Shown here piece by piece: positions 3,270-52,267 of a stretch of 64,000 bases of DNA; within the stretch, counting starts at the first letter, position 1, and each line of letters starts with the position of its first letter. The notes beneath the pieces are model-generated. The model saw nothing but the letters and a program-made list of their open reading frames with translations. It made no database searches and was not told the DNA's origin. The stretch lies in sequence record LC788708.1. One strand, 5' to 3'. The stretch comes from Escherichia coli phage AZ21. A program made the translations under genes and the position numbers.

Positions 3270-4415
3270 ATGACTACTTTACTAAACCTGAATTGGGATC
3301 ATACTAACGCTGACCTTTTCCTGGGAGATTCTCTCGGTATCGCAGATTATGTACGTGTAGCACATCCAGAACTAGAACGTCTGGCACTTCTGCAACGCTC
3401 TCAATTTTGGACTGAAACTGAAATCAGTCTGGAAGCAGATAAGAAACAATGGCCCAATCTCCCTCGTGAAATTCAGGAAATTACACTCCTGAACTTAGCA
3501 TGGCAAACTCAAACTGATTCCTTTATCAGTCGTGCCCCTGAAGCAGCTATTATGCCACTTGTAAGTCGTCCAGAATTGGAAGGTATGCTCAAACAGTGGA
3601 GCTATTTTGAAGACCTGCATAGTCGTGCTTATAGCAATATTATTCGTAATGTGCTGACTGATCCAGCAGAATTTATTGATTCTGTAACCAAAAACCAAGA
3701 AGCATTCGCGCGCATCGCTGATTCTGTTGAACTATTCGATGAACTGTACCAGTTAGGTCAGTATTTCATCGCAGTACGCGATCATCGTGGAGACAATACA
3801 TATCCAGAAACTGAGTTCCCTGAAGTTAAACGTGAAACTCAGGCTAAACTATTGGACGCTTACTTTGCGATCTATGGTCTGGAAGCAATGCAGTTTTACG
3901 CATCCTTTGCATGTACCTTTGCATTAGCAGAGAACGATATTCTGCAAGGTATTGCTAAAAATCTGCAATTAATCGCTAAAGATGAAGCTCTGCACACTCA
4001 GATGTCCAAAGCAATCATCCAGATTATGTTTCAGCAATTTGACAAAGATCTGGTAGATGAGGCAGTAGCTAAAGCACCAGCACAGCTCCTGAAAACTCTG
4101 AAAACTGAAATTGAATGGGGTCATTTCATTTTCAAAGGTCGTAGTCTGATTGGCTTGAATGCAGAACTTCTAGAAGAATATCTGTACTTTGTGGGGCGCA
4201 ATGCATTTATGCACATCGGTGTAGAATGGCCTAGTCACTTACCAGTAATCACCAAAAACCCTATTCCGTGGATCATGAACTGGTTGGATACTACTTCTCT
4301 ACAGCCTGCTCCGCAAGAAATCCAGATTGGTGCAGCTTACCGTGTAGGTCAGGTAACTGAGACCTCTACTGATACTCTGAAAGATCTGGGTAATGAATTT
4401 GGAGATTTCTTATGA
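3270..4415 (+). CDS. nrdB: ribonucleotide reductase small subunit
   Basis: 381 aa directly after nrdA with RBS; length and helical di-iron-type sequence consistent with NrdB. Confidence 0.8.
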   Translation: MTTLLNLNWDHTNADLFLGDSLGIADYVRVAHPELERLALLQRSQFWTETEISLEADKKQWPNLPREIQEITLLNLAWQTQTDSFISRAPEAAIMPLVSRPELEGMLKQWSYFEDLHSRAYSNIIRNVLTDPAEFIDSVTKNQEAFARIADSVELFDELYQLGQYFIAVRDHRGDNTYPETEFPEVKRETQAKLLDAYFAIYGLEAMQFYASFACTFALAENDILQGIAKNLQLIAKDEALHTQMSKAIIQIMFQQFDKDLVDEAVAKAPAQLLKTLKTEIEWGHFIFKGRSLIGLNAELLEEYLYFVGRNAFMHIGVEWPSHLPVITKNPIPWIMNWLDTTSLQPAPQEIQIGAAYRVGQVTETSTDTLKDLGNEFGDFL

Positions 4416-4945
4416 TTACAGCAATGTATGCAGTTGGGCCGAATGGGGAGTTCGGCCTCCGCGGTAAACTTCCATGGGGTTCCTTCAAAGAAGAACTAGA
4501 TGCTTTCTATTCTCAACTGGACGTATTAAATCCAGATAACATCATCATTGGTGCGGGTACTTATTTAGCTCTTCCATACGCCGTTAGAGAACGTATGATT
4601 AGGGCTTCTGACCTATTTATTCGTGTTGATCGTCCACTGCCAGACGATATTACGCATGATATTTACACTCCAATTTCTAAGATTGGGGATACATTACCTA
4701 CGTTTCTGAAAGATCAGCAGACAGTGGTTTTAGGTGGCGCAACATTATTGTACGAAATGTATATTCATGGACATATTGAGAGTGCTTTTGTATCCACAAT
4801 CTTTAGTAGTCAAAAACTAGAGGCAGATGTACATCTGGATAATATGATTCTAGATTACAACTATGAATCTACTCGTTTAGTTTACGCAACTGGCGCAAAC
4901 AGTGATAACAGCCTGCGATTTGTACAGGAATTGGTTACTTATTAA
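4412..4945 (+). CDS. frd: dihydrofolate reductase
   Basis: 177 aa; N-terminal GxxxxLPW and central GGATL pattern like FolA; start overlaps nrdB stop. Confidence 0.65.
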
Positions 4946-5799
4946 TGGATCAGTATATCGAAGTTGGAAAACGCATTCTATCAGATGGTCAGTGGGTAAC
5001 GAATCCTAGAACAGGGGTTCGTTGCCTCACTATTATTGATGCAGACTTTACTTTTAACGTAGGTGCAGGGGAATTTCCCCTTATTACTACTCGTAAGGCG
5101 TTTGCAAAACAAGCAATAATGGAAATGATTGGGTATCTACGTGGATATGACTCAGCAGCACAATTCCGTGCTATTGGTGTTAACACATGGAATGCTAATG
5201 CAAATGAAAACTCAGCTTGGCTAGACAATCCATACCGTAAAGGTGAGGATGATATGGGACGAGTCTATGGTGTTCAAGGACGTCAGTGGACTAATTCCGA
5301 TGGTCTTATGTTTGACCAACTAGCCAAGATTTATCATAATCTGAAAAGGGGCATTGATGATCGTGGGGAAATTCTAACCTTCTGGAATCCGGGAGAGTTC
5401 TCAAAGGGTTGCTTACGTCCATGTATGCACACTCATCAGTTCTCTATTTTGGGAGATACATTATACCTGAACTCTTTCCAGAGATCTAATGACTTCCTGT
5501 TAGGCCAAGTATTTAACATGGTTCAGTGCTATACGCTTCTAGCATTAATGGCTCAGATTACAGGCCTTAAACCAGGAATTGCACGCCAGAAGATTATCAA
5601 TCTTCATATCTATGAGGATCAGTATAATGTTTTGATGGAGCATAAGCAATTCGATCGTAAACCTTTTGCACCTCCTACTCTAGAAATTAATCCAAATATC
5701 CGAACTCTGGAGGATGTATTGACCTGGGTAAATAAGGATGATTTTACTGTTCGTGGTTACGAACACCACCCTGCTATTGCATACCCCTTTACGGTATAA
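4945..5799 (+). CDS. thyA: thymidylate synthase
   Basis: FWNPGEF and catalytic [10 protein letters not shown] motifs. Confidence 0.9.
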
Positions 5800-5802
5800 T
5801 AT

Positions 5803-6156
5803 ATGTTGACAATACTATTATTTGTTATATTCTTCCTGAAACATTTTATGGCTGATTATCCCCTCCAAACTCCATACATGTTAAGGAAGACCCACAAAAT
5901 AGGGTGGAAACTTCCATTACTAACCCATTCTCTAGTACATGCTGGACTAACCTTTATAATTCTTACTATGTTCACATCACTAGGAATGGCTATAACTTTA
6001 GCTATAATGGAATTAATTCTACACTTTATCATAGATTACTGGAAAGCACAATGCTGTAAATACGATATAAGTGATTCCAGGTTTTGGATAGCTTTAGGAT
6101 TTGATCAGTTACTCCATTACTTAACCTATGCTCTCATAATTTTAATTATAATTTAG
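5803..6156 (+). CDS. hypothetical membrane protein
   Basis: 117 aa, several hydrophobic helices. Confidence 0.4.
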   Translation: MLTILLFVIFFLKHFMADYPLQTPYMLRKTHKIGWKLPLLTHSLVHAGLTFIILTMFTSLGMAITLAIMELILHFIIDYWKAQCCKYDISDSRFWIALGFDQLLHYLTYALIILIII

Positions 6157-6159
6157 CTC

Positions 6160-6190
6160 AAATAGCCCTTCGGGGCTATTATATTTAAAT
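6160..6190 (+). terminator. terminator-like hairpin
   Basis: ATAGCCC-TTCG-GGGCTAT hairpin then AT-rich run. Confidence 0.55.
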
Positions 6191-6250
6191 TTCATTTGCT
6201 TATTTAGTGAAATTTAAATATAATATATTTTATAAATTGGAGGTACACAT

Positions 6251-6508
6251 ATGGGACTCTTTAGAAAGAAAGTTTATTTAACAGAAGAGCAAGAACACAA
6301 ACTTCTTACTCTATCAGAATACTATCATTTACCATATGATTATTTTGTAGATAGAGCAATAGAGGAATTCTTAGATAGAGAATTAGAGGCTATAAAACCT
6401 AAGCCTCCTGAGCCGTCTTTAGCATCAAAGGGTCACCAAAGAGAATCCCCAAGAGTTCCGCCAATGCCCCCAATTCCACCAAAAACTAGAGTTGTAACAG
6501 AGTTGTAA
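6251..6508 (+). CDS. hypothetical protein, proline-rich C-terminus
   Basis: RBS GGAGG then ATG. Confidence 0.4.
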   Translation: MGLFRKKVYLTEEQEHKLLTLSEYYHLPYDYFVDRAIEEFLDRELEAIKPKPPEPSLASKGHQRESPRVPPMPPIPPKTRVVTEL

Positions 6509-41601: not shown

Positions 41602-43272
41602 ATGATTATTTCCGCAGAAAAACAAACCGTTATCCTGAAAATGGCCGCTGATTTCAATTTCTACGGTAAACGCCTGCGCGCCACTAAACTGGAGGTCTGC
41701 GACGATATTTCAAAAGCGGTCTACGATACAACGAAACACTCCACCGCTATCTGCGACTGGCTGGAAGCAAATAAACCAGCGAAACCAAAAGCGGCAAAAG
41801 TAGCAAAAGCCATTAAAAACGGTGAGCGCCCCGAAGCGGCTGGGATTGTTTCTAGTACCGTGGAGCAGTGGGAAGTAAAACAAGGTAAACGCTTTATTAT
41901 TACATCGATTCAGAATAATACTTTCCCGCATAAAAACTTTTTAGCCTCACTGGAGCAATTTGCTAAATATATCGGGGCTGATTTGCTCGTTTCTAAGTAT
42001 ATTTATAATAAAAACGGTTTTCAAAATGGGGAAGGTGCTGACGGAATCAAATATGATTCCGCGTTTGATAAATATATTTGCAGCAAAAACGTGTTTTTGA
42101 ATAACCGCCGCTTTGCTTTCATGGCTGAAATTAATGTTTTGCCTACCGCAGATTATCCGCTTTCTGGATTCGCAGAAACTGCAACGGCTTTAAATATTGA
42201 AGGTCTGGCAATTGGTCACGCTAAAATTACCGCTGAAAGCGTACCAGCTTTAAAAGGTGAAGTAGTGCGCCGTATGTACTCAACCGGAACGGCAACGCTC
42301 AAAAACTACATTCAGCAGAAAGCAGGACAAAAGGCCGAGGCGCTGCATAACTTCGGTGCGCTTATTGTTGAGTTCGACGAGGACGGGGAATTTTTTGTAC
42401 GCCAGCTTGAAACGATGGACGAAAGCGGGGTATTTTATGATCTGAATGTGTGTGCTACTCCTGCCGGATGCTATGAAACATCGGGGCATGTTTTAGGCTT
42501 GCAGTATGGCGATATTCACGCCGAAAAATTAGATGAGGAGTGCGCCGCCGCGTCATGGGGGCATGGTGATACTTATGGGCTAGTAGATATTCTTAAACCA
42601 AAATATCAGTTTGTGCATGACGTGCATGATTTTACATCGCGCAATCATCATAACCGCGCATCGGGTGTATTCCTAGCAAAACAGTACGCCGCCGGACGTG
42701 ATAAGGTTATTGATGATCTTATCGATACGGGGCGCGTGCTGGAATCAATGGAGCGTGATTTTTCTCAAACAATCATTGTTGAATCGAATCACGATTTGGC
42801 GTTATCCCGTTGGCTTGATGATCGTAATGCTAACATCAAAGACGATCCAGCAAACGCAGAACTGTATCACCGCCTGAATGCTGCAATTTACGAGGCAATC
42901 GGTGAACATGACGAAACGTTCAACGTGCTAGATTATGCGCTGCGCAAGGTTGCAGGTTGTGAGTTTAACGCCATTTTCCTGACCACTGACCAATCTTTCA
43001 AGATTGCAGGCATTGAATGCGGCGTACACGGTCACAACGGCATTAATGGCAGTCGTGGCAATCCCAAACAATTTAAGAAATTGGGCAAGTTAAACACTGG
43101 TCATACTCATACGGCAAGCATTTACGGCGGGGTATATACCGCTGGCGTAGCTGGTAGTCTGGATATGGGTTACAACGTTGGCGCGTCAAGCTGGACGCAA
43201 ACTCATTTAATTACCTATGCAAACGGTCAGCGCACTTTGATTGACTTTAAGAACGGTAAATTTTTTGCGTAA
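41602..43272 (+). CDS. A1: A1-like pre-early protein, calcineurin-like metallophosphoesterase/nuclease
   Basis: 556 aa, the length I recall for T5 A1; metallophosphoesterase motifs YGDIHAE, HDVHDF, ESNHD, GVHGHNG, GHTHT; RBS AATGGAG. Confidence 0.75.
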   Translation: MIISAEKQTVILKMAADFNFYGKRLRATKLEVCDDISKAVYDTTKHSTAICDWLEANKPAKPKAAKVAKAIKNGERPEAAGIVSSTVEQWEVKQGKRFIITSIQNNTFPHKNFLASLEQFAKYIGADLLVSKYIYNKNGFQNGEGADGIKYDSAFDKYICSKNVFLNNRRFAFMAEINVLPTADYPLSGFAETATALNIEGLAIGHAKITAESVPALKGEVVRRMYSTGTATLKNYIQQKAGQKAEALHNFGALIVEFDEDGEFFVRQLETMDESGVFYDLNVCATPAGCYETSGHVLGLQYGDIHAEKLDEECAAASWGHGDTYGLVDILKPKYQFVHDVHDFTSRNHHNRASGVFLAKQYAAGRDKVIDDLIDTGRVLESMERDFSQTIIVESNHDLALSRWLDDRNANIKDDPANAELYHRLNAAIYEAIGEHDETFNVLDYALRKVAGCEFNAIFLTTDQSFKIAGIECGVHGHNGINGSRGNPKQFKKLGKLNTGHTHTASIYGGVYTAGVAGSLDMGYNVGASSWTQTHLITYANGQRTLIDFKNGKFFA

Positions 43273-43328
43273 TTAAATTATTTCCCTAGCGGCTTGAAAT
43301 ACAGCCGCTATTACAGGAGCTAAATTAA

Positions 43329-43607
43329 ATGGCTATTAAAATTAATCTTCCCAATATTAAAAACACCGCTGATATATGGTCGATTGATACTATATTGCGT
43401 GGCACTGTATACCGTAATTTAAAAGATAATAATTGTTATATTTATCAAAATGAATTAAACGGCCATATTTACATAATCGAGTCCGATGGTTTTTGTTCTT
43501 TTGAGACTGATTATGAAGCGCAAGATCATATACAGGCAAATGATATTCCTGACGTATGGAAAGAAACAAACCTTGCTTTTGTTGTAAGTCTTGAAGCTAA
43601 CAAATAA
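43329..43607 (+). CDS. hypothetical pre-early protein
   Basis: RBS CAGGAG; 92 aa. Confidence 0.4.
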   Translation: MAIKINLPNIKNTADIWSIDTILRGTVYRNLKDNNCYIYQNELNGHIYIIESDGFCSFETDYEAQDHIQANDIPDVWKETNLAFVVSLEANK

Positions 43608-43645
43608 ATTAAATATCTTATTAAATTAATTGGAGTTTTACAAAT

Positions 43646-44038
43646 ATGAAAAAGCAAAATATTCCATTCGATCGCGCTCAGTCTTCTATTGTTCTGGTTT
43701 ATTCTAATGGTGAGCGTTACCACGTCGAGGCGGGGCACGTTATTGATGAATTATTAGATTTCAATGACGCTTTACAGGTTACTACCTTTGCCTACACGCA
43801 AGGCCGCGCAAGTAGTTACATTAAGGCCGCAGGCGTTTATGTTGACACGGTGAAACAAGAAACGATTATCATCGACGCAGTAAAATCCGGTCTAGCCTTT
43901 GCAGTTGTCGCGCCTTGCCCCTCTTGTCTTGATGATCAGCTAACGAGTGCGAAAGTATACACCTGCGCGGGCATTCGTTCCCATGTATCAGGAGAGGATA
44001 TTAGTTTTATCGCTGATGCGTTGGCTTATGGTCTTTAA
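43646..44038 (+). CDS. hypothetical pre-early protein
   Basis: RBS TTGGAG; 130 aa. Confidence 0.45.
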   Translation: MKKQNIPFDRAQSSIVLVYSNGERYHVEAGHVIDELLDFNDALQVTTFAYTQGRASSYIKAAGVYVDTVKQETIIIDAVKSGLAFAVVAPCPSCLDDQLTSAKVYTCAGIRSHVSGEDISFIADALAYGL

Positions 44039-44118
44039 TAGTTGATTTATTATTGCCCGCTGATAGATAGCGGGCAATGCTGGATAAACTACATCCCTTT
44101 AATGGAGAACGTAACAAA

Positions 44119-44853
44119 ATGAATCAAGTTAAAACGAATATTTCCCGTAACTTCCCGCATATTTCCCGCGTCATGATCTGGGATCTTGATGGCACTATCG
44201 TTAATTCATTCCATCGTGTAGCGCCTTGCTTTGATAGTGAGGGTAATCTAGATTTAAATAAGTATAAGAATGAGGCTTGCAAACATGATTTAATAATGCA
44301 GGATACTTTATTGCCTTTGGTGGAATATATGCGCCAATGCATGAATGACGCAAATACTTTAAACATTATTTGTACCGCTCGATTAATGAGCAAATCGGAT
44401 TATTATTATTTGCGCAAACAAGGCTTGCGAGGGCGTGGGGATAGCAATATCCGCGTGTTTTCCCGCGACACGCTGCATAAATATTTTGAAGCTGATAAGG
44501 TTAGCGAGATATACCACAGTAAAGACGCAGTTTATAAATCGTATTACTTTGAATTATTTAAACAGCTATATCCGAACGCTGATTTCACAATGATTGATGA
44601 TCATAAAGGTGTATTATCAGCGGCGGCGTCATACGGATTTAAAACGCTAGACGCGCAAGCCGTTAACGATATTCTATCAATCGGCGTGGCATTGATAGGC
44701 GGAACCTTTATTGATGAATCTCTCGATGATGATAATGATTATCAGTTCCTAGCCGATCGATTGAAATTATGTTGGGAAAGTATGACCGAAGAAGAACGCG
44801 CAGAATATAGTTGCAGCCCGCAACAATATATTGAGAAATTAAAAGTTGCGTAA
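44119..44853 (+). CDS. dmp: HAD-family 5'-deoxyribonucleotidase (Dmp-like)
   Basis: HAD motif I VMIWDLDGT near N-terminus; 244 aa from the RBS-supported ATG; same CCCTTTAATGGAG leader as the A1-like gene. Confidence 0.7.
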   Translation: MNQVKTNISRNFPHISRVMIWDLDGTIVNSFHRVAPCFDSEGNLDLNKYKNEACKHDLIMQDTLLPLVEYMRQCMNDANTLNIICTARLMSKSDYYYLRKQGLRGRGDSNIRVFSRDTLHKYFEADKVSEIYHSKDAVYKSYYFELFKQLYPNADFTMIDDHKGVLSAAASYGFKTLDAQAVNDILSIGVALIGGTFIDESLDDDNDYQFLADRLKLCWESMTEEERAEYSCSPQQYIEKLKVA

Positions 44854-45017
44854 TAATTAAAGTTGAAATAGTTTCATCCTGCAATTAAAATGGTTGCGGG
44901 ATGAAACAATTACCCTGCTAATAGTAACGGGGGTGGCGGTTAGCAGACTAAGTATTCTCCCCCAACCCACTGGACACACCTCCATGTGTAATCCTATGAA
45001 ATTTGGCAAAAGTCAAA

Positions 45018-45263
45018 TTAGCGCATAGAAGGGTCATCAAACCTGTGCTCTGGTCTGAACTCACGGAATCTCTTCCACGACGCCCGAGATCCATCAGACC
45101 ACTCCCGCTCAAACTCCGCACGTTTCTCGTCAAACTTCCGCTCCCTTTCCGCAATCTCTCGCGTCACCCCCGCGATATATTCCCGATGCTTGTTAATTGC
45201 CGCAGTTGTCCCGAAAACTCCCGCGAGTATCCCGATAATAAAAGCAATTACAATACTAAACAT
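45018..45263 (-). CDS. small membrane protein
   Basis: N-terminal TM helix; RBS GAGAGGG on minus strand. Confidence 0.35.
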   Translation of the reverse strand: MFSIVIAFIIGILAGVFGTTAAINKHREYIAGVTREIAERERKFDEKRAEFEREWSDGSRASWKRFREFRPEHRFDDPSMR

Positions 45264-45450
45264 CTAATTCCCTCTCAATTTGCAGAATACGGGTACTATC
45301 ACAACGTTGCAGTAGTGCTAGCTTTTCTAGAGTAACTTGTTGTTGTTTTACCTGAGCTTCTAGAGTTTTTAGGCGGAGATACACGATACGAGAGACAATG
45401 AGGATTACCCAGACTAATATTACCATTAGTGTAATTGCCGCTTCCATCAT
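45256..45450 (-). CDS. small membrane protein
   Basis: TM helix; RBS GGAGAAA on minus strand. Confidence 0.35.
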   Translation of the reverse strand: MMEAAITLMVILVWVILIVSRIVYLRLKTLEAQVKQQQVTLEKLALLQRCDSTRILQIERELDV

Positions 45451-45553
45451 TTACGTTTCTCCAATAATAAGGTTTCAATTCTAGCTAAATGATTATCTAA
45501 AATACATTGTCCAATAATCACAATCCCTAGTAGTGCAATAATTACCCATTCCA

Positions 45554-45745
45554 TTAAATCCACCCCGCCATAGCTGCTAACCAAAAACCTACGAAGATTA
45601 GGAATAATACAAAACCAAATCCGTAAATATTAATCCACGCTTCATATACTTCTCCGCGTCTGTTCTTTCTTTTATTTGACATATCTTTCATGCTCCAATA
45701 AATGTGGTATCTGGAATATTTTACAGTTTGTGCACAACCAACCAT
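45554..45745 (-). CDS. small membrane protein
   Basis: C-terminal TM helix; RBS AGGAAG on minus strand. Confidence 0.35.
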   Translation of the reverse strand: MVGCAQTVKYSRYHIYWSMKDMSNKRKNRRGEVYEAWINIYGFGFVLFLIFVGFWLAAMAGWI

Positions 45746-45858
45746 GCTTGTGACTTCCTAGAAGGACTTCTCATTTTCTTGCATAGTGGTTTCTGCCAAT
45801 ATACCATCCAAAAAATAAAAAATTTAGTTTACTTGGATGTCGTTTTGCTTTATACTAA

Positions 45859-46125
45859 TTACAGGTAGTTAGATTGCTCTAGTTTAAATTTACAATCACC
45901 GTATTTAAGATCAAACTGACTGAGATCCCACCACCCAAACTTAGTACGGAGCTGTACTACTGGGAAGCGATCTCCCTTAATACGAACTTTTTGAACTTTG
46001 AGGCCATAATGTTCTTCTCCTGCACCTCCAAAAGATTTTACAAATCCCGTACAAAATGGTTTGGGAGCAGGTGCACAACCAGATAACATAACTGCGGCAA
46101 CTAGTGCAATCACAAACTTTTTCAT
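45859..46125 (-). CDS. llp: lipoprotein, Llp-like receptor-blocking candidate
   Basis: Signal peptide with lipobox LSGC; divergent from and adjacent to the receptor-binding protein gene; own early-type promoter. Confidence 0.6.
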   Translation of the reverse strand: MKKFVIALVAAVMLSGCAPAPKPFCTGFVKSFGGAGEEHYGLKVQKVRIKGDRFPVVQLRTKFGWWDLSQFDLKYGDCKFKLEQSNYL

Positions 46126-46156
46126 ATTTATCTCTCCATTTCTAATTTATGAATCT

Positions 46157-46185
46157 ATTATAGCAAAATAGAGGGATGAAAGCAA
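46157..46185 (-). promoter_or_regulatory. sigma70 early-type promoter for llp-like gene (minus strand)
   Basis: On minus strand TTGCTT-17-TATAAT then AGATTCATAAATT and RBS GGAGAG. Confidence 0.65.
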
Positions 46186-46210
46186 ATACATTTTTATAAT
46201 AGGAGATTAT

Positions 46211-47968
46211 ATGGGTTTTTTCGCTGGTAAGTATAGCGATGGTAAGACCGTACTATCTTTAAATACTGAATCTGGTGGTGACATTAATCGTCACTATAGT
46301 CCAAATGCCAATAGTATTTTTCATAGTGATATGCCATTTGTCCTAGTTGATGGTACTTATGAGTCTGGGTTAGGTGATGCCGGTAATGGGTTTTTTGTAT
46401 GTCAGATGCCCTCTGACATAATAAATATTAAATCTAACGATCCTGGTAGAGTTATACTAACTGCTATTGAAATTAATGGTACTCACAGAGCTTTTCTTAA
46501 CGGTACTCAGAGTAAAGTAGGTCAAACTATAGCTGCCACTCAAGCAGATCCTTTTAGATCTTTTGCTAGTGTTTCCCAGACTAGTGGATTTGCATTTGGT
46601 AATAGCCTGGCATCTGGTACATATAACTATAATCCATCTATAGGGCATGAAGAATCTATTTCTAGAAATGGTACTGGTGGAACCACCCTACATAGTACGT
46701 ATCATGGTATAGTTAGGCCAGGTGCAGGAGCTCCAGTAGGGGTTACTGTTGCAGAAGCTTTTGCACAGTTGGGTTTTCCTACTAATAGTAGTACAGTACC
46801 TATAGATGGTAATAATCAATATTACTGGGACCCAGGATGGATGTCTCCTTTAGGATCAGCACACAGAGGGCACGATTGGTTTTATGTTTGTAACTCTAAC
46901 ATACGTGGGTATGGTGGGGTAAGACAAGGTCTTCCTGGTAGTGTAAATACTATGTATCATGATGGTGGCAACAGATTTGTTTGTAGGGGTTCTACAACTA
47001 ATTTAGCTAATCAATCTAGTGATTCTACAATACTACAAGATTGGTATAACATAACTCCTACTAAGGTTATTTGGTACGTCTTGAATTTAAGATATTCTGG
47101 CGGCAATATGAGTATCTCTGGTAATCCTTTTACTGGTTCAGATATTCTTATATCTCCTTCTAATTTCATAATTAAAGGGGTTAGTCTTCCCAATACTGGA
47201 TACAAGTTTATTAACCAGAACGCTTTCGGTAACTTAGGTTATAGACCAGATATGGAATATATTGGAAATAATGCAGCGTACACTGGGGCCTTCGGAGATA
47301 CTACTGCAAGGTGTGAACTTGTAGGTTCTAGTAATGGGGGTTTATGGTCTCCTGTGGACTATGGAGGGGCTAAGTCTCAAATTAGTATTTACAAATTCGG
47401 AGCTGGTAAGCAATGGTACGTAAACTCTAATGATAATACTATCGGTAATGAACACGGGGTTGTTTGGGGGCCTTCAGCAGTTCCACTACGACTTTTTAGC
47501 GGAAATGTTGGTAGTTCTTACATGGGGGATGATATTACTCCCAGCTATCCAGGAACTGGAGATAGATACGTTGGTTTATCAACTATTGGGCTAGGTATAC
47601 CGGGTGGCAATGCTACCGTAATTCTTACCACTGAAGTTATATCAGGTAATCTTAACTGCGCGGGTGTTCCCGCTAATACATGGAATAACGGTGTATTTCA
47701 GGTTCAAGGAAGAAGAGCATATAGTTATAGTAATGGGGATGCAATATTTCATCAGATTTTAACATTACCAGTAGGGTATTTAGTACCTTTTCATACTACA
47801 TCTGCTTTTAGATACACACCTAACAATGCCCTAAGTAGAAATAGTTTTATATACACTGCTAAAAATCTGGGGAATGGAAATGTAGAGCTAGGGGTAGTTA
47901 TGCACGTAAGTTTAGGTAGTGCAGTTTTCCTACCTAGATTAAGAGTAACAGTTCAACGCCTAACCTAA
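46211..47968 (+). CDS. receptor-binding tail protein (pb5/Oad-like)
   Basis: 585 aa, Gly/Asn/Ser/Thr/Tyr-rich, adjacent to divergent llp-like gene. Confidence 0.55.
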
Positions 47969-47978
47969 AGGAGGATAT

Positions 47979-48461
47979 ATGGCAAATGATGTATTAGTTC
48001 CCGATCTCATGTCTCCCGAAGGCATGGATGTTATTGAAGCCTATTTACAGTGCGGTAGTGATGTTCCTGCCGCCGCTCGTAGTCTTGGAATGTCCGAGAT
48101 TGCATTTCGTGATATAATGAATCGTGGGGAAGTTAAAAACTATCTCAACGATATCTTTATGGAAAGCGGCTTCCGTAATCGTGACCGCTTATTCGGAGTT
48201 CTTGATGAAGTTATCAAACGCAAGTTGGAAGAACTCGAAGAAACTGGCATGGGTTCTGACCAGGATATCATGGATATTCTCTGGAAGGCGCACAAGATGA
48301 AGATGGAAGAAATGAAAATGATGGTAGAACTGGAGAAAGTGAAGGCAGCAGCCCGTACTCCGGCTAACCAGACTAATATTCAGAATAATATTATTGCTGG
48401 AAGTGGTGACGAAAACTATATGAATCTTATTACCGCTCTAGCAGGAGGAGGTAAGAGATAA
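47979..48461 (+). CDS. terminase small subunit
   Basis: HTH-like [17 protein letters not shown]; directly upstream of and overlapping terminase large subunit. Confidence 0.5.
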
Positions 48462-49777
48462 TGAAAGTCTCTAGAGATTATATTAACACCACAGATGTTA
48501 TTGACTTTGGTATTGACAAACGATTTTTTCGTCTGCCAGTCTCTAGCATTCTAGCTCAAGAGGGGATTACACCTAACGCCCCTCAGGTTGCAATTATTAA
48601 TGCGTTAGAAGATCCTAGACACCGTTTCGTAACTGCGTGTGTATCACGTCGTGTAGGTAAGTCATTCATCGCATATACACTTGGGTTCCTAAAACTTCTG
48701 GAACCCAATGTGAAGGTGCTGGTAGTTGCACCTAACTACTCACTGGCTAACATAGGTTGGTCACAGATTCGTGGTCTTATTAAGAAGTATGGATTACAGA
48801 CTGAACGTGAGAACGCAAAAGATAAAGAGATTGAACTAGCGAATGGTTCTCTCTTTAAGCTGGCTTCTGCGGCGCAGGCTGACTCCGCGGTTGGTCGTTC
48901 ATATGACTTCATCATTTTTGACGAAGCAGCGATTTCCGACGTTGGTGGTGCAGCTTTCGATATTCAGTTACGTCCTACTCTAGATAAGCCAAACTCTAAA
49001 GCTCTGTTTATTTCCACACCTCGTGGTGGTAACTGGTTTAAAGAGTTCTATGAGAAAGGATTTAACGAAACTCTACCTAACTGGGTATCTATTCATGGTA
49101 CATATCGTGATAACCCACGTGCTGATCTGAACGATATCGAAGAAGCGCGTCGTACTGTTAGTAAAAACTACTTCCGTCAAGAATATGAGGCTGACTTCTC
49201 TGTATTCGAAGGTCAGATCTTTGACACCTTCAATGCTATCGAACATGTTAAAGACCTCAAAGGTATGCGCCACTTCTTTAAAGATGATGAGGCTTTCGAA
49301 ACATTACTTGGTATCGACGTTGGTTATCGTGACCCTACAGCAGTTCTTACTATCAAGTATCACTATGATACTGATGTTTATTACGTACTGGAAGAATATC
49401 AGCAAGCTGAAAAGACTACAGCTCAACACGCTGCTTATATCCAACACTGCATAGATCGTTATAATGTTGATCGTATATTTGTAGACTCCGCCGCTGCTCA
49501 GTTCCGTCAGGACTTAGCATATGAACATGAAATCGCTTCTGCTCCTGCTAAGAAATCTGTCCTAGATGGTCTGGCATGCCTACAAGCACTGTTCCAGCAA
49601 GGTAAGATCATCGTAGATGCTTCATGTACCTCATTGATCCACGCCCTAGCGAACTACAGGTGGGACTTCCAGGAGGGCGAAGAGAAATTATCACGTGAAA
49701 AACCACGTCATGATGCGAACTCTCACCTTTGTGACGCACTGCGTTATGGAATTTACTCAATTTCCCGTGGGAAATAA
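48461..49777 (+). CDS. terminase large subunit
   Basis: Walker A-like VSRRVGKS, Walker B DFIIFDEAA, C-terminal nuclease-like acidic motifs (GIDVGYRDPT, FVDSAAA); 438 aa. Confidence 0.85.
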   Translation: MKVSRDYINTTDVIDFGIDKRFFRLPVSSILAQEGITPNAPQVAIINALEDPRHRFVTACVSRRVGKSFIAYTLGFLKLLEPNVKVLVVAPNYSLANIGWSQIRGLIKKYGLQTERENAKDKEIELANGSLFKLASAAQADSAVGRSYDFIIFDEAAISDVGGAAFDIQLRPTLDKPNSKALFISTPRGGNWFKEFYEKGFNETLPNWVSIHGTYRDNPRADLNDIEEARRTVSKNYFRQEYEADFSVFEGQIFDTFNAIEHVKDLKGMRHFFKDDEAFETLLGIDVGYRDPTAVLTIKYHYDTDVYYVLEEYQQAEKTTAQHAAYIQHCIDRYNVDRIFVDSAAAQFRQDLAYEHEIASAPAKKSVLDGLACLQALFQQGKIIVDASCTSLIHALANYRWDFQEGEEKLSREKPRHDANSHLCDALRYGIYSISRGK

Positions 49778-49948
49778 ATAAGTATAGGATGGGATACTAC
49801 TCAGTTGGTATCCCATTCCTGCATTTTAAAATCCCCTTTACAAATTCGACATGATTATGTATACTATATTCATTGATCGGGAGAACTTCTCCCCTAATAG
49901 AACGTAAACAAGAAAAATTAGTGCTCTATACGGAGTGTAGGAGATTCT

Positions 49949-50623
49949 ATGGGTCGACAAAAGCTAACAATAAAAGATATAAATACTAGATTAGCTGATC
50001 GTGGAATCCAAATTGTCGGTGAATATGTAAACCAACGTACAAAAACAGTATTTAAGTGCCAAAGAGCACACGTTTGGGAAGCAACGCCACATTCTATACT
50101 CCATATTAAGAGGGGTTGCCCACACTGCGCACCTAATACTATATTGCTAGATGAAGTTAATAACAGGATATCCAGTATAGGGTATACACTGTTAAATAAC
50201 TATACTAATGCAAAAACAAAACTACATCTACGCTGTAATAATGGTCATGAATGCGATATTACCTTAGATGGGTTGACGCAAGGTAGAAGATGTCCTTATT
50301 GCTCCCTTAAATGGGATAATGGTGGATTTCTCTATATCATGTCCTCTTCTAGGGGTACTAAAGTAGGTATAGGTTTATACCCCGAGAAGCGATTGAACGA
50401 GGTTAAAAGAGAGTCTGGATTTTCAGATCTATACTTATTTACCACGTATCACTTACCTGATAGAGAAACTGCTCTAGATTTAGAAAAAGAAGTCCATAGA
50501 GAATATTATAATAAAAACTGTGGGTTTTCAAAATTTACAGGAAGCACAGAATTTTTTAATGTTGCTCCAGAGGATATAGTAGTCTTTCTAAGTAACTTTG
50601 GATTGGAGGAATATGGCCACTAA
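49949..50623 (+). CDS. zinc-ribbon plus T5orf172/GIY-YIG-like domain protein
   Basis: Two CxxC pairs then GFLYIMSSSRGTKVGIGLYPEKRLNE pattern. Confidence 0.5.
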   Translation: MGRQKLTIKDINTRLADRGIQIVGEYVNQRTKTVFKCQRAHVWEATPHSILHIKRGCPHCAPNTILLDEVNNRISSIGYTLLNNYTNAKTKLHLRCNNGHECDITLDGLTQGRRCPYCSLKWDNGGFLYIMSSSRGTKVGIGLYPEKRLNEVKRESGFSDLYLFTTYHLPDRETALDLEKEVHREYYNKNCGFSKFTGSTEFFNVAPEDIVVFLSNFGLEEYGH

Positions 50624-51050
50624 TACTAAGTACAAACGTGATGCCATTTCCATAATGAGGGATGGTATAAAATCTAGGTATAGTAAGGATGGTTGCTGTG
50701 CTATATGCGGTAGTGATGAAGCCCTAGAACTTCATCACTATCATACTATATCTCAACTAATTAAAAATTTTGCTAAAGAACTCCAGCTGGATTTCACTGA
50801 TGAGAATATCGTCCTTTCAAATAGGGAAGCATTCTATAAGAAATATGAGCATGAATTAGTTAGAGACGTAGTAACATTATGCCAGCATCATCACCAATTA
50901 TTACATAAGGTTTACACAAAAGAACCTCCTTTATTTTCTGCTAATAAGCAAAAAGTGTGGGTTCAAAAGCAGAAAGACAAATTACAGAATCCTCAAGAAA
51001 AGACACAAGTCAAGACTGAAACAAAATCAGGATTCGCAAGGTTCTTATAA
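50598..51050 (+). CDS. HNH endonuclease
   Basis: CCAICGSDEALELHHYH ... CQHHHQLLH. Confidence 0.6.
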   Translation: MDWRNMATNTKYKRDAISIMRDGIKSRYSKDGCCAICGSDEALELHHYHTISQLIKNFAKELQLDFTDENIVLSNREAFYKKYEHELVRDVVTLCQHHHQLLHKVYTKEPPLFSANKQKVWVQKQKDKLQNPQEKTQVKTETKSGFARFL

Positions 51051-52267
51051 TGGGTTTTAAAAGCTGGATTACTGAAAAGCTAAATCCGGGTCAACGTATT
51101 ATAAGAGACATGGAACCAGTTAGTCATCGCACTAACCGTAAGCCTTTTACCACTGGACAAGCCTACAGTAAAATTGAGATTCTCAATAGAACTGCTAATA
51201 TGGTTATAGATAGTGCGGCGGAGTGTTCTTATACTGTCGGAGATAAATATAATATTGTCACGTATGCCAATGGCATCAAGGCAAAGACTCTAGACACTCT
51301 CTTAAATGTACGACCTAATCCATTCATGGATATAAGCACATTCCGTAGACTTGTAGTCACTGACCTACTTTTTGAAGGTTGTGCATACATCTATTGGGAT
51401 GGCACAGCACTTTACCATGTCCCTGCTGCACTAATGCAAGTAGAGGCAGATGCCAATAAGTTTATCAAAAAATTTATATTTAATAACCAGATAGACTATC
51501 GCGTAGATGAGATTATCTTTATAAAGGATAACAGTTACGTGTGTGGCACAAATTCTCAAATTTCTGGACAATCTCGTGTTGCTACTGTTATTGATTCTCT
51601 TGAGAAGCGTTCTAAGATGCTTAACTTTAAAGAGAAGTTCCTAGATAACGGAACCGTGATTGGTCTTATTCTTGAGACGGATGAAATCCTGAACAAGAAA
51701 TTGCGTGAGCGTAAACAAGAAGAATTACAACTAGATTATAATCCTAGTACTGGTCAGTCCTCTGTCCTGATTCTAGATGGTGGTATGAAAGCTAAACCGT
51801 ACTCCCAAATATCCTCTTTTAAAGATCTAGACTTTAAGGAAGACATTGAAGGATTTAATAAATCTATCTGTCTAGCCTTTGGTGTTCCGCAAGTGCTACT
51901 TGATGGTGGTAATAATGCGAACATTAGACCAAATATCGAACTGTTCTATTATATGACTATCATCCCTATGCTGAACAAGCTGACTAGTTCTCTTACTTTC
52001 TTTTTTGGTTATAAGATTACTCCTAATACTAAGGAAGTAGCTGCATTAACACCAGATAAAGAATCTGAGGCTAAACATTTAACCTCATTGGTTAATAATG
52101 GTATTATAACTGGTAATGAAGCTCGCTTAGAGCTGAACCTTGAACCTTTAGATGATGAGCAGATGAATAAGATTCGTATTCCTGCTAACGTTGCTGGTTC
52201 TGCAACAGGTGTATCCGGTCAAGAAGGTGGTAGACCTCAAGGTTCCACCGAGGGAGATAAAGAATGA
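51050..52267 (+). CDS. portal protein
   Basis: 405 aa immediately downstream of terminase region and upstream of protease and capsid; assigned by synteny and size. Confidence 0.6.
   Translation: MGFKSWITEKLNPGQRIIRDMEPVSHRTNRKPFTTGQAYSKIEILNRTANMVIDSAAECSYTVGDKYNIVTYANGIKAKTLDTLLNVRPNPFMDISTFRRLVVTDLLFEGCAYIYWDGTALYHVPAALMQVEADANKFIKKFIFNNQIDYRVDEIIFIKDNSYVCGTNSQISGQSRVATVIDSLEKRSKMLNFKEKFLDNGTVIGLILETDEILNKKLRERKQEELQLDYNPSTGQSSVLILDGGMKAKPYSQISSFKDLDFKEDIEGFNKSICLAFGVPQVLLDGGNNANIRPNIELFYYMTIIPMLNKLTSSLTFFFGYKITPNTKEVAALTPDKESEAKHLTSLVNNGIITGNEARLELNLEPLDDEQMNKIRIPANVAGSATGVSGQEGGRPQGSTEGDKE

Follow-up and report, generated by a model that had tools for sequence, protein, structure and literature searches.

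A predicted BF23-type BtuB host-recognition module in a T5-like Escherichia coli phage

The 64,000-nt stretch of DNA analysed here (the window) comes from Escherichia coli phage AZ21 (LC788708.1) and contains, at 45859-47968, two divergent genes: llp, which encodes a small lipoprotein (Llp), and hrs/oad, which encodes a receptor-binding protein (RBP). We identify this locus, with little doubt, as the BF23-type BtuB host-recognition module of a T5-like phage, in which a late RBP of the pb5/Hrs family (DT57C/Bas31 subtype) is combined with an early, divergently transcribed Llp that blocks the receptor. The locus and its alleles are already known (the Llp of BF23 and an Hrs of the Bas31/SPLA5b type), and no new receptor class is involved. 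Over 45700-48100 the sequence agrees at every position (100% identity) with that of E. coli phage AZ23 (LC788707), a Tequintavirus of the Demerecviridae from sewage in Japan, and we infer that AZ23 uses BtuB from the published BtuB dependence and Llp protection associated with identical or near-identical proteins.

The llp-hrs locus

The first-pass annotation of the window had described an 88-aa lipoprotein divergent from a 585-aa Gly/Asn/Ser/Thr-rich protein, and both open reading frames (ORFs) were recovered. The llp gene occupies 45859..46125 on the (-) strand and encodes an 88-aa precursor of a receptor-blocking (superinfection-exclusion or lytic-conversion) lipoprotein of BF23 type, which begins MKKFVIALVAAVMLSGC. 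The RBP gene lies at 46211..47968 on the (+) strand and encodes 585 aa; Gly, Asn, Ser and Thr together make up 39.5% of this protein, versus 20.1% of the adjoining terminase large subunit. The same two coding sequences (CDSs) are called in the AZ23 GenBank record as AZ23E_1250 and AZ23E_1260, where all 14 CDSs of positions 76612-85012 (window ~42700-51100), including those for terminase, RBP and Llp, are labelled 'hypothetical protein'. The two can now be named and their receptor predicted to be BtuB, which helps in designing phage cocktails that avoid cross-resistance through a shared receptor.

The order and orientation of the llp, RBP and terminase genes are common to T5, BF23, DT57C, SPLA5b, Bas31 and Bas32, in keeping with the earlier comparison with the T5 llp/oad arrangement. 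The terminase genes follow directly 3' of the RBP gene in a late structural/packaging block, and we infer late expression of the RBP gene from T5 synteny.

Receptor class of the RBP

The RBP matches phrog_4815 over residues 1-585 (E = 1.4e-272) and, in two blocks, the pb5 chains 8b14_B and 8a8c_B of the Protein Data Bank (PDB; E = 9e-50). Its termini are kept, with MxFFAGK at the N-terminus and ...LP..(I/V)QRLT at the C-terminus. We regard it as a clear homologue and a full-length member of the pb5/Hrs family. In T5, pb5 at the tail tip binds its TonB-dependent transporter, which leads to tail opening and DNA ejection. By this model, the late RBP of the window would be a monomeric tail-tip protein that binds BtuB, the TonB-dependent vitamin-B12 transporter, irreversibly, and this binding would trigger DNA ejection. 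The RBP of BF23 has been found in virions by tandem mass spectrometry, and BF23 Hrs functionally replaces pb5 (PMC10644984).

The RBP was compared with members of the three receptor clusters (FhuA, BtuB and FepA) defined in PMC8594841. Global identity was 30% to T5 pb5 (FhuA, 640 aa) and 28.7% to the RBP of S124 (NC_048013; FepA-type, 637 aa). It rose to 67-68% for BF23 Hrs (BtuB, 595 aa) and 73% for DT57C Hrs (BtuB, 586 aa), and to 97.9%, 96.9% and 96.9% for the RBPs of Bas31 (DaisyDussoix), Bas32 (IrisVonRoten) and Salmonella phage SPLA5b, respectively. The last three are all 585 aa long and differ from the window RBP by 12-18 substitutions and zero indels. It had been noted that 585 aa is shorter than the ~640 aa of pb5 and that the receptor may therefore not be FhuA; comparison with pb5, BF23 Hrs and FepA-binding relatives bears this out, the protein being nearest to the BtuB class. 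It clusters with the RBPs of BtuB-dependent phages, apart from the FhuA and FepA clusters, and its partner Llp is of BF23 type (identical to that of BF23).

Receptor use in these relatives has been established in several ways. In SPLA5b, transposon-directed insertion-site sequencing (TraDIS) flags btuB as a susceptibility gene, and no plaques form on a btuB deletion strain (PMC10949491). BtuB is listed as the terminal receptor of Bas31 and Bas32 (PMC8594841 S5 Table), and according to the methods of that study the BASEL isolates were tested on receptor knock-outs that included a purpose-built btuB mutant (PMC8594841). Resistance to DT57C arises through btuB-inactivating mutations (PMC4728585). 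For BF23, too, published work has shown that infection is lost without btuB. Because the near-identical relatives use BtuB and the Llp is identical to that of BF23, we predict with high confidence that the receptor of the RBP is BtuB and not FhuA.

Bas31, Bas32 and SPLA5b thus share the RBP allele class of the window, together with an Llp that is identical or 1-4 aa different. They differ from AZ23 in that BtuB has been reported as their receptor, whereas for AZ23 it is taken from these relatives and the RBP carries seven substitutions of its own relative to the four clade members compared (S52, A108, S244, S270, G297, N299 and S430). Two points weigh against the assignment: a literature search for AZ23 found no experimental work on the phage, yielding just an unrelated paper on a Salmonella strain, and an effect of the seven AZ23-specific substitutions on specificity is conceivable. 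The same substitutions could also fine-tune host range.

Mosaic structure of the RBP and its predicted receptor-contact loops

Relative to other BtuB-type alleles, the RBP is a mosaic. Residues 1-103 are ~100% identical to the RBP of vB_SenS_S124 (OK108607), residues 104-176 are nearest to DT57C, residues 176-290 resemble none of the compared alleles closely (13-60% identity), residues 273-430 come nearest to BF23 and vB_SenS_S124, and the C-terminal third is intermediate between alleles. T5 pb5 shares with the protein a conserved N-terminal region of ~100 aa and a conserved central and C-terminal core; the window RBP is 55 aa shorter, and its predicted receptor is BtuB rather than FhuA.

In the FhuA-pb5 complex, pb5 inserts four loops into FhuA, namely L1 (tip Gln115), L2 (tip Phe170), L3 and L4 (570-590) (PMC9586334). 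When L1, L2 and L4 were mapped onto the RBP, they fell at residues ~114, ~172 and 529-539, within segments of low identity; the positions of L2 and L4 are approximate, as identity to pb5 is low there. The L1 equivalent lies in a variable segment, aa 104-132 (46520..46606, + strand), in which the Gln115 tip aligns with Pro114 and identity is 47-60% to BF23 and 73% to DT57C. The most divergent segment, aa 163-290 (46697..47080, + strand; 13-57% identity to BF23 and 23-67% to DT57C), includes the L2 equivalent, with Phe170 placed near Ala172; residues 142-273 were left unaligned in the HMMER alignment to pb5. The variable segment aa 529-552 (47795..47866, + strand) corresponds to L4 and is 6-7 residues shorter than in BF23, as it is in DT57C.

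These loop-equivalent segments are of the DT57C type and not the BF23 type, and the L1, L2 and L4 equivalents show 0-1 differences each from those of SPLA5b, Bas31 and Bas32. BF23 (Mondigler et al. 2006; OR083247) has the same Llp protein, llp DNA that is 95-97% identical, a near-identical promoter, and the same gene order, orientation and terminase neighbours as the window, and its RBP is likewise of the pb5/Hrs family with BtuB as receptor; its RBP differs in length (595 versus 585 aa) and in the low identity (down to 13-47%) of aa 104-132, 163-290 and 529-552, which correspond to the receptor-inserting loops of pb5. DT57C and DT571/2 (Golomidova et al. 2016) carry a BF23-type Llp beside an Hrs that forms a mosaic when set against that of BF23, with L1, L2 and L4 equivalents of the window type, and for them BtuB dependence and Llp protection have been shown experimentally. 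The DT57C RBP differs from that of the window in residues 176-290 and 333-400, and in the latter segment the window is nearer to BF23.

One near-invariant Llp (at least 95% identity, 181 records) is paired with at least three Hrs variants, the predicted receptor-inserting loops of which are 13-60% identical although BtuB is used by all. We tentatively propose, as something short of an even chance, that each Hrs variant has its own loop chemistry or epitope for docking on BtuB, in an arms race with loop variation in the BtuB of E. coli and Salmonella, and that a single epitope-independent periplasmic Llp cross-excludes all of them.

Identity and distribution of Llp

The N-terminus of Llp forms a signal peptide (46075..46125, - strand) with the lipobox LSGC (L14-S15-G16-C17), as had been annotated. 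The Pfam family LPAM_1, a lipoprotein lipid-attachment site, matches residues 1-18 with E = 5e-5 and 23.9 bits, above the curated cut-off of 20. Cys17 (codon 46075-46077) is predicted to be the lipidated N-terminus of a 72-aa mature protein. C17, C25 and C78 are invariant in the Llp family alignment, and Cys25 and Cys78 are predicted, by analogy with T5 Llp, to form a disulfide pair.

All 88 residues are identical to BF23 Llp (88/88; OR083247, BF23_00171), and identity to Bas31 Llp is also 100%. DT57C Llp (98.9% identity) and Bas32 Llp each differ by 1 residue and SPLA5b Llp by 4 residues. The primer BF23Llp42-F, used for llp cloning in Golomidova 2016, matches 46097-46137 (- strand) with 1 mismatch. 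When the cloned DT57C llp is expressed leakily, the efficiency of plating drops by a factor of more than 100, both for DT57C-series phages and for BF23 (PMC4728585). BF23 Llp is described as a BtuB blocker in the same paper, which also cites Mondigler 2006 for protection by BF23 Llp. The proposal that an early lipoprotein blocks the receptor used by the late RBP is supported by the identity to BF23 Llp and the 98.9% identity to the protective Llp of DT57C. Llp also matches phrog_1119, 'Cor superinfection exclusion protein' (E = 1.8e-26); this label, as it appears in RefSeq, is a family name and should not be read as 'blocks FhuA'.

The Llp family was found in 401 records of a phage collection, of which 181 are at least 95% identical to the window protein (BF23 type) and 213 are 65-69% identical. 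Sampled members of the latter group come mostly from Salmonella T5-like phages, including TrudiRoth/Bas30, for which BtuB dependence has been complemented (PMC8594841). RBPs with at least 60% identity were present in 397 records of the collection, about equal to the 401 of the Llp family. In a database of 5.8 billion proteins, the Llp family formed no more than 11 clusters (E <= 0.001). Contigs of 92-120 kb, as large as T5-like genomes, carried five of these.

Relationship to T5 Llp and the mode of receptor blocking

The Llps of BF23 and T5 have been called non-homologous in older literature, and pairwise identity between the window Llp and T5 Llp is about 28-30%. Both proteins nevertheless match phrog_1119 over their full length (E = 2e-26 for the window Llp and 1e-19 for T5 Llp), and their mature parts match the same profile positions (E = 2.6e-16 and 1.4e-11, respectively). 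An hhalign comparison of the BF23-type and T5-type Llp subfamilies gave a probability of 92.4% (E = 5e-7). Each Llp has a lipidated Cys, one N-proximal Cys and one C-proximal Cys; in T5 Llp, Cys11 and Cys58, the counterparts of C25 and C78, are disulfide-bonded (PMC9586334). Together, these sequence comparisons are evidence that the window Llp and T5 Llp are remote homologues in a Cor/Llp family.

Several caveats apply to this relationship. The phrog_1119 evidence may be partly circular, because that PHROG possibly comprises both subfamilies, and part of the hhalign score comes from the signal peptide. With a narrow Llp family profile, a search of PDB sequences did not reach T5 Llp. A Foldseek search of the PDB with the AlphaFold2 (AF2) model of Llp (predicted local distance difference test, pLDDT, 83) gave a best E of 0.39, with T5 Llp not among the matches. 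A phmmer search with the window Llp gave no hit among PDB sequences, to which T5 Llp (8A60 chain B, 7QJF) belongs. For T5 Llp in its free state, AF2 has likewise been reported as inaccurate (PMC9586334).

The mechanism of T5 Llp has been described structurally. From the periplasm, T5 Llp engages the plug of FhuA in a non-native conformation (PMC9586334). In the FhuA-Llp crystal structure it causes EL7 and EL8, two extracellular loops of FhuA, to fold in over the site of pb5 (PMC9586334), and the authors proposed that small phage lipoproteins jam TonB-dependent transporters generally (PMC9586334). Considering that T5 Llp and the window Llp appear to be remote homologues, a periplasmic 'reverse allostery', in which the transporter is jammed from the periplasmic side, is the likely mechanism for the window Llp as well. 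Llp would be made early from its own sigma-70 early-class promoter, and would then be exported and lipidated. By analogy with T5 Llp and FhuA, it most likely binds the plug of BtuB on the periplasmic side, and the plug-bound Llp would force extracellular loops of BtuB over the RBP-binding site. Llp would inactivate BtuB as a phage receptor, which would prevent superinfection as well as the loss of progeny on cell debris.

Alternatively, the receptor is BtuB but Llp acts at the cell surface, where it occludes the receptor sterically, or takes another route that does not involve the plug, an explanation that we consider unlikely but worth weighing. The window Llp is placed on the periplasmic side by analogy with T5 Llp; an older in vitro study, as cited in PMC9586334, placed T5 Llp outside the cell; and Foldseek gave no link between the Llp model and T5 Llp. 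Against surface blocking stand the remote homology to T5 Llp with the same Cys pattern, and the periplasmic, allosteric action of T5 Llp in the FhuA-Llp crystal structure. Furthermore, one Llp accompanies RBP variants with very different loops, which is more easily explained if Llp acts on the conserved periplasmic face of the receptor. Blocking through the periplasmic plug is therefore the mechanism that we favour for the window Llp.

Alternative receptors

Two other receptor assignments were weighed against BtuB, and both are highly improbable. The first is that the RBP binds FhuA like T5 pb5. The gene arrangement equals that of T5 llp/oad, and the RBP of Citrobacter phage Cit2 has been said to be 96.9% identical to the T5 RBP, with FhuA inferred as the receptor (PMC12980165), a statement on a member of this RBP clade that, taken at face value, speaks against BtuB. 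The high pb5 identity and T5-type Llp that mark the FhuA type are replaced in the window by ~30% identity to pb5 and an Llp of BF23 type that is 28% identical to T5 Llp, and near-identical RBPs come from BtuB-dependent phages.

In the RBP-Llp locus taken from Cit2 (OP745948; 849-2958), the RBP is 96.8% identical to the window RBP and 73.2% identical to DT57C Hrs. Its identity to pb5 (NC_005859/AY543070) is 30.6%, not 96.9%, and Cit2 Llp is 100% identical to BF23 Llp. Cit2 was reported to use FhuA with a puzzling, 'decoupled' BtuB-type Llp (PMC12980165). The possibility that the 'T5' record NC_005859 carries a BF23-like RBP, which might have explained the published figure, was rejected, as positions 4428-6350 of the locus taken from it encode an authentic 640-aa pb5. 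These sequences are most simply read as those of a BtuB-type phage, as is the case for AZ23, with no decoupling of RBP and Llp in Cit2; the FhuA assignment and the 'decoupling' in PMC12980165 look like an error. Assigning this RBP clade to FhuA, as published, is at odds with the sequences and ought not to be repeated.

The second, binding to FepA (H8/S124 class) or to some other so far unrecognised outer-membrane receptor, was raised in the first-pass annotation and draws on the 33% difference between the RBP and BF23 Hrs, with the greatest divergence in predicted receptor-contact loops, but it is opposed by the low identity to the FepA-type RBP (28.7% to S124, NC_048013, where the class calls for high identity to S124/H8), which is itself paired with an unrelated 'blocking' protein, by loop equivalents resembling those of the BtuB-dependent DT57C, and by clade members at 97-98% identity that use BtuB.

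Two phages share the name 'S124', which creates a risk of mix-ups in receptor trees. One, vB_SenS_S124 (OK108607, China, Tequintavirus), was dropped as a FepA reference, as it carries a BF23-type RBP and Llp and belongs to the BtuB class; the other is the Danish Epseptimavirus NC_048013, which is FepA-type and served as the reference instead. In the locus taken from the latter, the gene at 4219-4530 (- strand) is annotated 'receptor blocking protein, T5 Llp-like', and its product is 103 aa long, lacks a signal peptide and lipobox, and resembles neither type of Llp (17% and 16% identity). Either the annotation, start or frame is in doubt, or the blocker of FepA-type phages is an unrelated protein. 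Window-type RBPs (~96-97%) were also found in OR846838 and OR849067 ('Listeria phage LM 4-11-1/4-14-1', short records) and in two 'Campylobacter' phage records, which are probably mislabelled or contaminating sequences rather than signs of true Gram-positive or Campylobacter hosts.

Promoters and ribosome-binding sites

The divergent intergenic region (46126..46210, 85 bp) is nearly filled by the llp promoter and two ribosome-binding sites. The llp promoter (46157..46185, - strand) is of the early class and has the form TTGCTT-17 nt-TGcTATAAT, with a -35 element TTGCTT at 46185-46180, a -10 element TATAAT at 46162-46157 and a 17-nt spacer that ends in TG (extended -10); it lies 32 nt 5' of the llp ATG. 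Across the window, 19 copies of the motif TTGCT-N17-19-TATAAT were counted, compared with 0.36 expected from shuffles of both strands, and the claim that llp has its own early-type promoter holds at the sequence level. The 18 copies other than that of llp all lie within the early region (3210-38621) on the + strand, and presumably represent the strong early or pre-early sigma-70 promoter set of the phage. Many of them also have TG ahead of the -10 element.

The llp site is kept in BF23, DT57C, vB_SenS_S124 and T5; a promoter is marked at this place in the record of T5, and a predicted early one in that of BF23. T5 oad (pb5)-llp resembles the window in its architecture and logic and in the position of an early-class promoter. 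We take the llp promoter sequence to resemble closely the classical strong T5 promoter P_N25. A generic sigma-70 scan of 45600-46400 found no match in the intergenic region, the llp promoter included, because its -35 element TTGCTT scores 3/6 against TTGACA. More generally, the -35 TTGCT(T/A) departs from the E. coli consensus, and generic scanners miss these promoters.

No + strand sigma-70 consensus promoter for the RBP gene was found in the scan of 45600-46400. The sequence TATAAT at 46195-46200 was considered and rejected: it directly precedes the ribosome-binding site, only 10 nt separate it from the ATG, and it is absent in T5. A transcript from it would begin at or after the ribosome-binding site, and it was therefore not called a promoter. 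The ribosome-binding sites read from the sequence are GGAGAG for llp (46132..46137, - strand; 6 nt 5' of the ATG) and AGGAG for the RBP gene (46201..46205, + strand).

Boundaries of the module and neighbouring genes

At the DNA level, llp is 94-97% identical to that of BF23 and DT57C, compared with ~80-90% in the flanking backbone and 46-83% in hrs. Relative to T5, DNA similarity collapses over ~45750-47950, a span that takes in llp and hrs, and is restored from the terminase genes onward. Exchange of hrs-llp as a module, with an extra recombination point between the two genes, has been described (Mondigler 2006; Golomidova 2016, PMC4728585), and by sequence comparison the boundaries in the window reproduce this module. 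The pattern suggests that llp spreads or persists as a near-invariant cassette while hrs alleles shuffle beside it. For T5, structures of the FhuA-pb5 complex (8A8C/8B14), of FhuA-Llp (8A60) and of Llp (7QJF) are available for comparison.

Downstream of the RBP gene (phrog_4815) lie the genes of the terminase small subunit (47979-48461, + strand; the evidence for the terminase pair includes phrog_3802 with E = 2e-90) and large subunit (48461-49777, + strand; Pfam Terminase_6N and Terminase_6C). Downstream of llp, four small ORFs encoding single-transmembrane or unknown proteins (45018..45745, - strand; phrog_8596, 6369, 5851 and 6447) are homologues of T5.159-T5.162 and BF23_00172-175, in the same order in T5, BF23 and DT57C.

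An ORF with a HAD motif (DLDGT) at 44077-44853 (+ strand) matches phrog_415, labelled 'polynucleotide kinase', and is the positional counterpart of dmp (5'-deoxynucleotidase), the first terminal-repeat gene in BF23 and T5. The terminal-repeat boundary is therefore probably near 44900-45000, and the AZ23 assembly probably holds one collapsed copy. A 224-aa ORF (49949-50623, + strand) that separates the terminase large-subunit gene from the following late gene matches PHROGs for endonucleases, HNH and homing endonucleases (phrog_681, E = 7e-58). T5 carries an endonuclease gene (T5.154) at this position, but in the records of BF23 and DT57C no such gene is annotated, and the ORF likely encodes a mobile homing endonuclease.

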